Below are positions 6,001 through 9,000 of a stretch of DNA of 10,544 bases, in pieces. Made by a program: the position numbers. Every line of letters begins with the position of its first letter. The first letter of the stretch is position 1. This DNA is from a virus. Its lineage: Duplodnaviria > Heunggongvirae > Uroviricota > Caudoviricetes. The DNA lies in the IMG/VR virus record IMGVR_UViG_3300029841_000319, positions 1-10,544 of that record. One strand, written 5' to 3'.

Positions 6001-9000
6001 CATAACTTGTTACCTCGGTCTGTTACTGTTGAGGTAATAATTATGCTTATTTGGTTTGGTGTCAATAGATATGAGTTAAAAAAATTACCCGTAAGGTAAT
6101 CTATCTGGCAATAAAAAAGCCGCCAGAAGGCGGCTTACTTACTGAAAAGTATGATTTTATTGTTTGTTTTTTTCGTTCTGGTTGATGACAAATTCAATGT
6201 AACTTTCGATCTTTGCTTTCTCGGTTTCGGGTAACAATGCGTAGCGCGAGCGGTCATAGTTGATGGTCGCAGGGTCGTGCGGGTGAATCAGTAATTCATA
6301 GCCGTGACGCCCGAATGCGGATGCAACATTCTCCAGGGTGGAAATGGAAACGCTGACCTCATTGTTTAACAGGCGACTGATTGTCACCTGGGCGACGCCG
6401 GATGCGCGGTGAAGTTTTCCCTGCGTTGAAAGGTCGCGGCTTTCGCTCATCCAGCGTTCCAGGTTGTGAGCCGCCAGCTGACCAATGTCGCTTGGGCCGA
6501 CAGGCTGAAAACCTTCCTGAGAAAGCGAGCGATCGATATCAAGCCAGTTACGGGGTTTATTGGCGGCAGCTTCAATTTTTCGTGCAACCTGGTCGCCGAT
6601 AACCTTCTTGCCAAGAGCCCAGCGGTTTACCAGATTTGCCTGAGTTCCAAGTTTTTCTGCCATCCGCGTCTGAACACCATTGAATTCACGGTCGATCAAG
6701 TCGTTGAGATTTTGCCTGCGGACGTCCTGGATACTTTTCATTTTCTGGAAAATCGCCTCATATATGAATCAGTAGATGATTCAATTTAAAGCAATATTAC
6801 CCAACAGGTAAATGCACCTCATAGGTAACTATCCTTGATTTTTGTTACCTTATGGGTGAATATTTATTATCTGAAATAAATATCAGGCAATAGCTATGAG
6901 CGATAACGGACATTTCGATTTCAAAAAGCACTGGCTTGCACTTACTCCGGATGAGCGTGAAGCCTTCGCACAGGAAGCCGGAACGACGAGTCACTATATC
7001 CAGACTCACTTAACAGGTAAGCGCAAAATGCCAGGTAAGGTATTGATGAATGGGCTTTTTAAAGCCTGTAAAACAAGACAATGGCTGCGCTCAAAAGCAG
7101 AACTGGCATACTTCTTCTACTCATGATATCCAGCTACAACCCTCTGTAGACCGCCACCCGGCGGTCTTTTCATATCTATTCGTACCTCAAAGGTAATAAA
7201 AAACCAAATCTGGTTGATCTTTTTTTTGTGTCAGCACAAAATGACCGTAATCCCAATACTAATAACAGGGCTTACCATGGAAATCATTACACGTATTGAT
7301 GCCGCAAAGCGCGGACTTAAACGCTACTACACCGGAAAACCATGTAAGCATGGACATGACAGTGAACGCTGGGTTTACAACGGACACTGTGTTGAGTGCA
7401 CCATGGAATCAAACCGTCGCATCAGGGCAGAGATTAAGCAGATCATGATTAATTCCTCCCCACAACACTCAAGCTGATAGCGGAGATTAATCATGAGCAG
7501 ACATGCAACAGATTGGGCCTGGGAGACAGATCCAGGTAGCTCATCATTAAAGCTCATACTGCTCTCGATGGCTGACAGAGCCGATGAATATAACCTCTGC
7601 TACCCCAGCATAGAACGCCTCGTTAAAGACACTTGCCTGAATAAAAAAACCGTGCAGGCCGGGCTTATATCGCTCATGAAAATGGGGCTTATTTCAGATA
7701 CCGGAGAGAGAAAGGGAGTGACAAAAAGAGTGCGGGTTTTCTCTCTTAATATAACCAAAAACGGGAACATTAAAGGCAACCTAGAAGGGTGTAATGAACC
7801 CGAAAACGGTAATGTTCCCGAAAACGGGAATATACCCAAAAACGGGATGTTGAATGATCCCAAAAACGGGATGTTGAATGATCCCAAAAACGGGATCCAG
7901 AACCAGTCATATAACCAGTCATTTAACCAAGAGAGGGAGAGCAGGACAAAAACCGGGGATTCTGTGCCTCATGACCCCGGCGCAAACAACGCCGTGATGA
8001 ATAACTTTGTTCCTCCTGGTGGGCCAGGGCAATTAGGCAAATTTGTCATGCATGAACAATGGCAGCCATCAGATGACTTTCTTCGGAAAAGCTCATTGCA
8101 GGGAATCTACCTGGACAGTCTGCCAACGGCACAGGAACTTGCAGAGTTCAGAATTTACTGGATGGCTGAGGGTAAGGCATACCATCAGGCACAGTGGGAG
8201 CAGAAGCTGGCAAGGCGCATCCAGTTCTGTAGACAGAAATCAGGTGAAGTCAGAAAGAGCCTTGACTGGCATAACACTGACTGGATAGATGAGGTGTGGG
8301 ATGAAATCAACTCCAGAACTTCTTAATGAGTACGATCGCTTTCGTGGTGGGCATGACCACTCGACGGCGGTTGCTTCTGCTGACGATGAAAGGGCAAAGA
8401 AGGAGCAGGTTGCAAGAATTTTCAACGAAATGTTTGTCCAGTTACAGGCTGCATTTCCAGGCAGCATCGCTGCTATCAGCGAGCAAGGAAAGCTAAACGA
8501 ATTTCGAAAACAATGGATGCTTGCGTTTCTGGAGAATGGGATCACAACAATGGAACAGGTTAACGCTGGTATGCGCCACGCCCGCGCCAGTGAATCTCCG
8601 TTCTGGCCGTCGCCAGGGCAATTTATCAAGTGGTGTAAAGACAGCAAGATGGTTCTTGGCGTCACCATTGACGATGTGATGGCGGAGTTTCACCGGTACA
8701 GCAAGGAAAAAAGTTTATATCCTGGTGGTCCCGAAAGATTCCCGTGGCGACATCCGGTTATGTACTGGGTCGTATGTGATACCCGCCGTGCAATGTATCA
8801 GCGCCAGCTTAGCGAGATTGAGGTTGAGAAACACGCGCGCAGGCTGCTCGATGATTGGGCGAAAAAGGTGGCTTCCGGACAGCAGATACCCGATCCGGTG
8901 ATCAGCATACAGGCAAAGCCAGAACCCATGAGTACACCTCCGGACACAGGGAGAGACGTTTACCATCCACCAGGGCGAAGTTTCGGGTGCATGCCTAACG

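Follow-up and report, generated by a model that had tools for sequence, protein, structure and literature searches.

The immunity repressor of a phiV10-type Escherichia coli prophage: probable control by antirepressors, and a candidate c4-like RNA upstream of an AntA-type ant gene

How is an immunity repressor lifted from its operators when it carries two helix-turn-helix (HTH) regions and no recognizable self-cleavage domain, and do both of these regions read DNA? The question is raised by rep, a gene on the minus strand of a 10,544-nucleotide stretch of a Caudoviricetes genome (IMG/VR record IMGVR_UViG_3300029841_000319, positions 1 to 10,544; the whole stretch is hereafter called the window). 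An initial annotation, made from the sequence, placed its 194-residue product (Rep) in the position of cI, considered RecA-stimulated self-cleavage unlikely, pointed to an AntA-like antirepressor encoded at 1283-1933 (hereafter window ant) as a possible inducer, and supposed that a tandem-HTH chain might read both halves of a dyad or two adjacent dyads.

By its sequence matches, Rep is an already known repressor, with published identical proteins and a characterized family. It is 100% identical to gp40 of phage phiV10, to ORF21 of phage vB_EcoP_ZX5 (ZX5), and to repressors from over a dozen E. coli phages, and the GenBank record of phiV10 gp40 already notes "two helix-turn-helix motifs." In ZX5, overexpression of this identical repressor blocks lytic growth, abolishing free phage and cutting lysis-gene mRNA by more than 99.9%. 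Crystal structures exist for a more distant relative, Rep of Salmonella phage SPC32H, both as residues 92-198 (5D4Z) and in complex with its antirepressor Ant (5D50). Window Rep matches SPC32H Rep (5D50_A) at E 4e-42 over residues 1-190 by phmmer and at 42% identity over the full length by BLASTP (E 2e-53), and it matches the 5D4Z fragment at E 4e-20, with a Foldseek TM score of about 0.7 on the C-terminal half. All 86 database homologues of Rep are about 194 residues long, and their Pfam matches are to HTH families only. We read window Rep as the immunity repressor of an epsilon15/phiV10-type E. coli prophage and as an orthologue of SPC32H Rep, one that most likely works in the same way.

What that way is can be taken from the summaries of the SPC32H work given in later papers. 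According to these, SPC32H Rep comprises an N-terminal DNA-binding domain (DBD), a middle dimerization domain (MDD), and a C-terminal CAD/TetDloop segment for tetramerization and antirepressor binding. On DNA it forms a tetramer in which the paired DBDs come from different dimers; Ant traps it in a nonfunctional conformation; and induction proceeds by LexA cleavage followed by Ant synthesis, with the repressor itself uncleaved. Mapped onto this architecture by alignment, the first HTH of window Rep is the DBD, the second HTH the MDD, and the tail the CAD, with identities to the SPC32H protein of 54%, 34%, and 47%, respectively.

We therefore propose a model, to which we assign as a whole a probability of roughly 0.85, in which Rep behaves as its SPC32H counterpart does. 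The basic N-terminal HTH domain (residues 1-71) would be the only DNA reader of Rep, the second, HTH_3-like domain (about 89-152) would have been re-used for dimerization, and the C-terminal strand-plus-helix tail (about 153-194) would join dimers into tetramers and provide the docking site for antirepressors. Pairs of N-domains would occupy symmetric TTACC-N5-GGTAA operators, which lie over or on either side of PR, PL, and two or more other early promoters, and operator pairs 62 bp apart would suit a single tetramer holding two operators. Rep would be removed reversibly by Ant proteins, without self-cleavage. A short ant with its own LexA box, located beyond the window on the upstream side of the tailspike gene, would supply the SOS input, and window ant would be an accessory paralogue, with an AntA N-domain fused to a C-domain of the SPC32H Ant type and without a LexA box, probably held in check by an antisense RNA of the sRNA-Xcc1 family that would pair with its ribosome-binding site.

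The domain and structure searches bear first on the protein itself. Pfam matches HTH_3 (PF01381) to Rep in two stretches at E 1.2e-9 (38.5 bits, cutoff 23), the best covering residues 106-147, where HTH_26, LacI, and HTH_31 also fall; a Cro/YdaS-type HTH lies below threshold at residues 21-61. PHROGs assigns both halves to transcriptional-repressor families, and NCBIfam yields only sub-threshold matches to Rep (RstR, HigA, TreR) and none to the Ant or the cro-like protein. Two HTH-like segments are thus present in both Pfam and the AlphaFold2 model, as the initial annotation had it, but the second helix-turn-helix proper sits at about residues 107-125, inside the domain at about 89-152, rather than at 120-150. 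The AlphaFold2 model, built as a monomer from 34 homologues (mean pLDDT 77, pTM 0.40), is entirely helical, with bundles at 4-59 and 85-151, a C-terminal helix at 172-193, and no beta-rich domain. The linker at 73-83 is of low confidence or disordered (72-88 has a pLDDT below 50), and residues 157-162 are likewise of low confidence, as would be expected for a strand formed only in the oligomer. The top 12 Foldseek matches in the PDB are all chains of 5D50 or 5D4Z, followed by the XRE-type HTH proteins NHTF, SinR, HigA, DdrO, and C.BclI. No Peptidase_S24 match to Rep is found in Pfam even at E ≤ 1, no peptidase occurs among the 430 Foldseek PDB matches, and neither an Ala-Gly nor a Cys-Gly dipeptide, the scissile bond of S24 repressors, is present anywhere in the 194 residues. 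The proposed absence of a LexA/S24 motif is thereby confirmed, with no cryptic S24 fold in the 194-residue protein. Lacking an S24 domain, Rep cannot be triggered to self-cleavage by RecA, and the original doubt about such cleavage is upheld by this, by the missing scissile dipeptide, and by the homology to SPC32H Rep.

The second line of evidence lies in the DNA. The 15-bp palindrome TTACC-N5-GGTAA occurs at seven sites in the window with at most one mismatch, versus 0.14 expected, and none of 200 shuffles reaches seven (sites in Table 1). In SPC32H, too, the rep-cro region has three such sites, arranged alike, with centers about 17 and about 30 bp apart. The pairs at 6023/6085 and 9121/9183 are both spaced exactly 62 bp center to center, as are pairs in SPC32H, phiV10, and HEMP4. 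Sixty-two base pairs amount to about six helical turns, which may let one Rep tetramer hold both sites; the paired operators, at spacings of 62 bp or 17 bp, would likewise be consistent with a dimer-tetramer equilibrium of window Rep and with DNA binding by the tetramer.

Several further observations concern the palindrome. It is found at most early promoters, beyond the rep-cro region, and copies in the whole-phage relatives L002, L004, and L005 lie at the terminase, tRNA, tailspike/ant, and int regions as well; together with the 62-bp pairs around promoters, this distribution is suggestive of a Rep regulon that extends over the phage, with tetramers bridging sites. Its right half-site GAGGTAA at 9183-9203 doubles as the Shine-Dalgarno sequence of gene 9201-9545, and Shine-Dalgarno sequences of the AGGTAA type recur in the phage (also at 6005-6015), such that operator half-sites overlap ribosome-binding sites.

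If Rep is not cleaved, what would remove it? The AntA-like antirepressor proposed for window ant is borne out, its product matching AntA (PF08346) in Pfam at E 9e-28 (97.2 bits, cutoff 27) and phrog_377, anti-repressor Ant, at E 1e-66. The last 80 or so residues align with the whole of the 86-residue SPC32H Ant (5D50_E) without a gap (E 7e-14, 36-40% identity, 30 invariant positions). This C-domain, of what we call type 2, is also 84% identical over the last 102 residues, and fully identical over the final 42, to ORF4 of ZX5, an "anti-repressor" of the Bro-N form. Overexpression of ORF4 lowered the prophage titer about 1000-fold and rep mRNA by 75%, and lysogeny was lowered; this is the only functional evidence, and a rather crude one, that a type-2 C-domain may counteract this exact Rep. 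Homology to a repressor described as Ant-inactivated, the match of the Ant C-domain, and the effect of ORF4 together bear out the expectation that induction proceeds through an antirepressor.

The rest of the prophage was assessed through relatives, namely, Ecol_542, HEMP4, phiV10, and ZX5. Their genomes qualify the suggestion that window ant itself is the inducer, which its Ant homology makes reasonable: window ant has no LexA box, and the relatives carry an SOS-controlled short ant outside the range of the window. A search of the window for LexA boxes (CTGT-N8-ACAG with at most one core mismatch, and a 20-mer consensus score) found none, the best sites having at least one core mismatch and lying away from the ant and rep promoters; LexA control of window ant was rejected for want of a box near its promoter. 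In SPC32H the characterized ant is short, precedes the tailspike gene, and has a perfect LexA box, TACTGTATGTTTATACAGTG, immediately ahead of it. All four relatives possess the same short ant, 86-88% identical in product to SPC32H Ant, with the same box in the same place; in the Ecol_542 prophage it lies about 30 kb from rep.

The surroundings of that gene add to the count of antirepressors. Upstream of the tailspike gene, the SOS-controlled cluster of the relatives consists of the LexA box, the short ant, an IsrK/c4-a1b1 element, a C4 RNA, and a gene for a Bro-N protein whose type-2 Ant C-domain is nearly identical to that of the window; in phiV10 this Bro-N gene appears frameshifted and split into p23 and p22. 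With a short ant, a Bro-N ant, and an AntA-type ant found in the relatives, some prophages encode three Ant-domain proteins. The AntA type is dispensable, since phiV10 and ZX5 have a DUF1382 ORF in its place next to int. Between Salmonella and E. coli phages (L002 versus L005, L004, and L007), moreover, the short Ants share 86-88% identity and the Reps only 42%, an asymmetry in constraint. The Stx2 phage P13374 (L128, 2400-3166) carries the same sRNA-Xcc1 element and an AntA N-domain about 80% identical to that of the window, joined to an unrelated-looking C-domain, and no homologue of Rep was found in that phage. This fits a role of the C-domain as the repressor-specific module of Ant, and the pattern looks like domain swapping of a repressor-targeting module.

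Among the alternatives to the proposed model, the one that survives best, although we consider it unlikely, is that the product of window ant does not act on this Rep. It may instead engage in crosstalk with the repressors of co-resident prophages, or be a Bro/AntA-type DNA-binding regulator with another job, which would make the short LexA-controlled Ant the sole cognate inducer. The identity of its C-domain to the validated Ant is indeed low beside the 86-88% of the short Ant of the same lineage, antirepressors are known to act on repressors other than their own, N-domains of the AntA, Bro-N, and KilA-N types are widespread in proteins of unproven function, and phiV10 and ZX5 do without the gene. 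Set against this, the gapless alignment to SPC32H Ant with its invariant residues spans the whole C-domain, ZX5 ORF4, whose C-domain is almost the same, had the effect of an anti-repressor on an identical Rep, and P13374, which is without this Rep type, combines the same N-domain and RNA with a different C-domain.

Far less probable, in our judgment, is the tandem reading of the initial annotation, in which both HTH domains of one Rep chain would contact DNA, on the two halves of one dyad or on two adjacent dyads. In its favor, the HTH_3 match of the second domain is genuine, close homologues all keep Q118 and R123 in the second helix of that HTH, and some operators lie near each other in pairs, such as 6797-6811 and 6814-6828. 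Yet the SPC32H equivalent of this domain is described, in the summaries available, as the dimerization domain of a protein whose DBD is N-terminal. The half-sites TTACC and GGTAA are identical and two-fold symmetric, so that two copies of one reading head are expected, and the two HTH domains of Rep do not resemble each other: a comparison of the N- and C-terminal halves for internal duplication gave no significant similarity (best BLASTP E 0.65), and a basic N-domain (isoelectric point 10.3) contrasts with a near-neutral to acidic remainder (6.2). Conservation is telling as well, in that the recognition helix of the N-domain, NLVNRW, is the same in the window and SPC32H Reps and does not vary in the family, in E. 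coli and Salmonella phages with the operator motif in common (N36, R40, and W41 are invariant in the 34 homologues), while the helix of the second domain differs, reading QVTISRLL in window Rep and PATVNRIM in SPC32H Rep. The lesson is a corrected misreading: a second HTH match is not the same as a second DNA reader.

That Rep is nonetheless inactivated by RecA-stimulated or other proteolysis, cryptic or non-S24, is hardly credible: the flexible linker at 72-88 could be protease-accessible and the absence of a motif is not proof, but there is no positive evidence for cleavage, the domain and fold searches above speak against it, and in descriptions of both homologous and analogous systems the repressor stays uncleaved and antirepressors drive induction.

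Several points nevertheless weigh against the proposed model and keep its probability below certainty. At a pTM of 0.40 the relative placement of domains in the AlphaFold2 model is uninformative, and a monomer does not display dimer or tetramer interfaces. The domain assigned to dimerization is only 34% identical to the SPC32H MDD, and the invariance of Q118 and R123 leaves room, as far as sequence alone can tell, for a residual DNA contact by the second domain. Position and conservation are what point to Rep, rather than the cro-like protein or another factor, as the ligand of TTACC-N5-GGTAA, and the DNA and Ant binding of this exact Rep is carried over from SPC32H through the summaries of later papers. 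Finally, the C-domain of the window Ant is only 36-40% identical to the structurally characterized Ant, and the crude overexpression data from ZX5 were obtained with a different N-domain.

What, then, may govern window ant in place of LexA? On the same strand and just upstream of the gene lies a match to the sRNA-Xcc1 family (Rfam RF02221), scoring 62.9 bits against a gathering score of 53 (E 9e-10) and covering model positions 1-87 of 87. The RNA is predicted to fold into a 9-bp outer stem around two hairpins, followed by ACCA, and the minimum free energy fold agrees (z = -2.4). The Rfam C4 model (RF01695, clan CL00128) gave no score on 1700-2400 even at E ≤ 10. The loop of hairpin 2 is complementary to a stretch that abuts the Shine-Dalgarno sequence of ant, and the same 8-mer is duplicated upstream of the RNA, an arrangement reminiscent of a2 and a1 targets (Table 1).

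Two other readings of this region were tried and rejected. The segment ATCACCAG-N7-CTGGTGAT at 1975-1997 was dropped as the DNA operator of an unknown regulator, since it overlaps the RNA 3' end and the following hairpin; small ORFs at 2045-2224 (minus strand) and 1932-2255 (plus strand), in the interval from ant to the methylase gene, were rejected as Mnt/Arc-like regulators, the region being RNA-coding and bearing no annotation in relatives.

A survey of 119 phage stretches with the conserved RNA core (L008-L126), which provided 64 unique RNA/leader combinations with 56 distinct loops, allowed the pairing to be assessed across the family. In 83 of the analyzed loci, a gene with a Shine-Dalgarno sequence starts within 70 nucleotides of the RNA. 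Over the 64 unique loci, the mean contiguous pairing between the loop and the Shine-Dalgarno flank is 7.36 nucleotides for cognate and 4.62 for non-cognate combinations; pairing of at least 7 nucleotides is seen in 78% of the former and 8.7% of the latter, and none of 2000 permutations reaches the cognate mean. The target has a second, identical copy of 7 nucleotides or more, located 60-120 nucleotides upstream, in half of the loci (50%) versus 1.1% of non-cognate pairings. Most downstream genes code for antirepressor-type proteins: at 57 non-redundant loci, the N-domains include the Bro-N (15), KilA-N (12), P22_AR_N (8), Rha (7), and AntA (6) types, and the P22_AR_C domain also occurs among these proteins. 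Classical C4 and IsrK/c4-a1b1 elements precede the Bro-N Ant paralogue in phiV10, HEMP4, ZX5, and Ecol_542, and antB1 of P13374 also has an sRNA-Xcc1 element.

Covariation thus lends good support to the view that the sRNA-Xcc1 RNA exerts c4-like antisense control of ant. The papers searched treat sRNA-Xcc1 as a trans-acting small RNA, described as integron-borne and as virulence-linked or vesicle-borne, and one of them records it ahead of an ORF6N gene in APSE phages; no link of sRNA-Xcc1 to c4 or to the control of ant was found in the searchable literature, and the connection is probably novel. Put together, these results favor, with moderate confidence, a broader reading. Window ant would offer a second, SOS-independent route to derepression gated by a c4-like RNA, and throughout proteobacterial phages the sRNA-Xcc1 family would control antirepressor genes (Bro-N, KilA-N, P22_AR, Rha, AntA) in the manner of c4, as an immunity riboregulator whose specificity loop evolves together with duplicated a1/a2 targets. 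A single prophage might then integrate three Ant inputs (the LexA-controlled short Ant, the C4/IsrK-controlled Bro-N Ant, and the sRNA-Xcc1-controlled AntA-type Ant) on one non-cleavable Rep.

Table 1. Features of the rep and ant loci in the window, with the corresponding SOS-controlled clusters of relatives
Feature	Position	Strand	Remarks and basis
rep	6157..6741	-	194-aa immunity repressor, SPC32H Rep family; ATG start, stop codon included
Rep residues 1-71, N-terminal HTH DNA-binding domain	6529..6741	-	HTH helices 24-31 and 35-43; pI 10.3
Rep residues 89-152, second HTH_3-like domain, MDD equivalent	6286..6477	-	Pfam, 5D4Z alignment, Foldseek
Rep residues 153-194, C-terminal strand-plus-helix tail, CAD/TetDloop equivalent	6160..6285	-	47% identity to SPC32H Rep, AlphaFold2
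Intrinsic terminator after rep	6117..6136	-	8-bp GC-rich stem then T-run; annotated in phiV10 too
Right operator region between rep and cro-like gene	6797..6859	.	three 15-bp palindromes
Right operator 1, TTACCCAACAGGTAA	6797-6811	.	pattern search
Right operator 2, GCACCTCATAGGTAA, two mismatches	6814-6828	.	sequence
Right operator 3, TTACCTTATGGGTGA, between -35 and -10 of PR-like promoter	6845-6859	.	pattern and promoter scan
PR-like promoter, reads into cro-position gene	6842-6870	+	promoter scan
cro-position gene, 76 aa	6896..7126	+	phrog_35 transcriptional repressor, E 6e-13
Terminator of cro-position gene	7148-7167
Further operator-like palindrome, GTACCTCAAAGGTAA	7182..7196	.	3' of the terminator of the cro-like gene
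Left operator, TTACCCGTAAGGTAA	6085-6099	.	pattern search
Left operator, TTACTGTTGAGGTAA	6023-6037	.	pattern search
PL-like promoter of leftward early operon, TTGACA-17-AATTAT	6065-6037	-	bracketed by left operators; promoter scan
Operator pair, 9121-9135 and 9183-9197	9121..9197	.	brackets promoter-like TTGATT-17-TTTAAT upstream of gene 9201-9545
ant paralogue (window ant), 216 aa	1283..1933	-	ATG 1933 or TTG 1963; AntA N-domain nt 1664-1873, C-terminal Ant domain nt 1301-1531
sRNA-Xcc1-family RNA (Rfam RF02221)	1975..2064	-	same strand as ant, ends 42 nt before ant start codon
Hairpin-2 loop, CUUUGAAG	2003-2010	-
a2-like target, CUUCAAAG, complementary to hairpin-2 loop	1943..1950	-	abuts ant Shine-Dalgarno GGAGG 1939-1943
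a1-like upstream copy of the 8-mer, CTTCAAAG	2135..2142	-	second occurrence 1943-1950
Promoter-like TTGACA-18-CATACT, upstream of a1-like copy	2185-2156	-
SOS-controlled cluster of relatives	L005 19551-20800; L004 33800-35110; L007 14807-16130; L127 1078-2390

The wider context agrees with the affiliation given above. The ORF map of the window is that of the left arm of a temperate phage, with the order integrase, AntA-like gene, DNA methylase, PerC-like and AlpA-like regulators, RecT, PD-(D/E)XK exonuclease, repressor candidate, cro-position gene, and replication genes. The stretch 5500-7600 is 97-98% identical in nucleotide sequence to phiV10-type Escherichia podophages, which belong to the genus Uetakevirus, the epsilon15 group. 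No complete E. coli genome or phage record was found to hold the entire window at 99% identity or above. The closest complete prophage is that of E. coli Ecol_542, which has the same gene order and begins right after guaA; thus, the window starts at the int end of the prophage. Three local features may be recorded here. RecT (302 residues) and the PD-(D/E)XK exonuclease (273 residues) are separate overlapping ORFs within 3853-5552 (minus strand), as they are in Ecol_542, and the phiV10 annotation has a single 1761-nucleotide RecE-RecT fusion at this place. The methylase gene and the ant module are separated by an ORF of 82 residues at 2258-2506 (minus strand; phrog_9805, of unknown function), which is absent from Ecol_542, whose gap there is only about 250 bp. 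Within the replication-initiator (DnaT-like/O-like) gene, direct-repeat arrays at 7791-7929 (18 bp × 3.1; 24 bp × 2.6, 100% identical; 12 bp × 2.4) also yield a repetitive NG..PKNGMLNDPKNG peptide and, like those in lambda O, probably serve as origin iterons.

For the repressor, the outcome is one more member of a family whose structure and antirepressor-driven induction have already been described. For annotation, it means that phiV10-type prophages, which are common in E. coli including O157, would be induced through antirepressors, and that the logic of RecA cleavage is inapplicable to them. The RNA, a by-product of this analysis, may matter more than the repressor, and the multi-Ant arrangement is also of interest. 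Covariation indicates that sRNA-Xcc1-family RNAs in phages are cis-linked, c4-like regulators of antirepressor genes; if true, this role changes the interpretation of RF02221 matches and exposes a widespread, diversifying layer of immunity.

Among known systems, the closest is the Rep-Ant pair of SPC32H, studies of which are reportedly those of Kim and Ryu (J Virol, 2013) and Kim et al. (PNAS, 2016). The two phages share the genus Uetakevirus, the location of rep between a leftward recombination operon and a cro-like gene, a three-part repressor architecture without S24, the operator motif with its three-site layout, a phage-encoded Ant-domain protein, and, in close relatives of the window phage, a LexA-boxed short ant. 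They differ in that the Ant of the window is a 216-residue fusion of AntA with a type-2 Ant domain, beside int, without a LexA box, and behind a putative c4-like RNA, whereas SPC32H as annotated has only the 86-residue LexA-controlled Ant. With phiV10 gp40 and ZX5 ORF21 the repressor protein is identical, and the phages differ by their DUF1382 ORF in place of the AntA-type ant.

A mechanistic likeness, with no sequence relationship claimed, is found in GfoR/GfhR and GfoA/GfhA of Gifsy-1/-3 and in Tum of phage 186, where a non-cleavable repressor is countered by a small antirepressor whose gene lies outside the immunity region and is controlled directly by LexA. In the Gifsy prophages, an antirepressor complex takes the repressor off DNA (Lemire et al., 2011). 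The Gifsy repressors and antirepressors are reported to interact as dimers, in contrast to the SPC32H Rep tetramer. The SinR-SinI pair of B. subtilis and Rco-Rap of pLS20 likewise join an XRE HTH N-domain to a C-terminal oligomerization domain targeted by a small antagonist, and Rco is summarized as sharing the TetDloop tetramerization fold with SPC32H Rep. These belong to other biological systems, have no close sequence relationship to Rep, and are without its middle HTH-like dimerization domain. With lambda cI and LexA, the comparison rests on the position between divergent PL-like and PR-like promoters, the N-terminal HTH, and the multiple operators, including a tripartite right operator. 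It ends at the C-terminal part, which in window Rep is all-helical, without an S24 domain or cleavage site, and inactivation would come about by protein binding.

The RNA, for its part, is best compared with the immI regions of P1 and P7 (a1b1, c4, a2b2, ant), where c4 RNA blocks Ant synthesis by masking the ribosome-binding region. The window RNA differs in matching sRNA-Xcc1 and not C4, in an outer stem of 9 bp rather than 17 bp, and in having no icd-like ORF between the RNA and ant. Both RNAs measure some 80-90 nucleotides and directly precede an antirepressor gene in the same orientation, and the likeness extends to an outer stem with two hairpins and a CCA-like tail, a loop complementary to the downstream ribosome-binding site with a duplicate upstream target, and a multitude of loop specificities consistent with immunity types.

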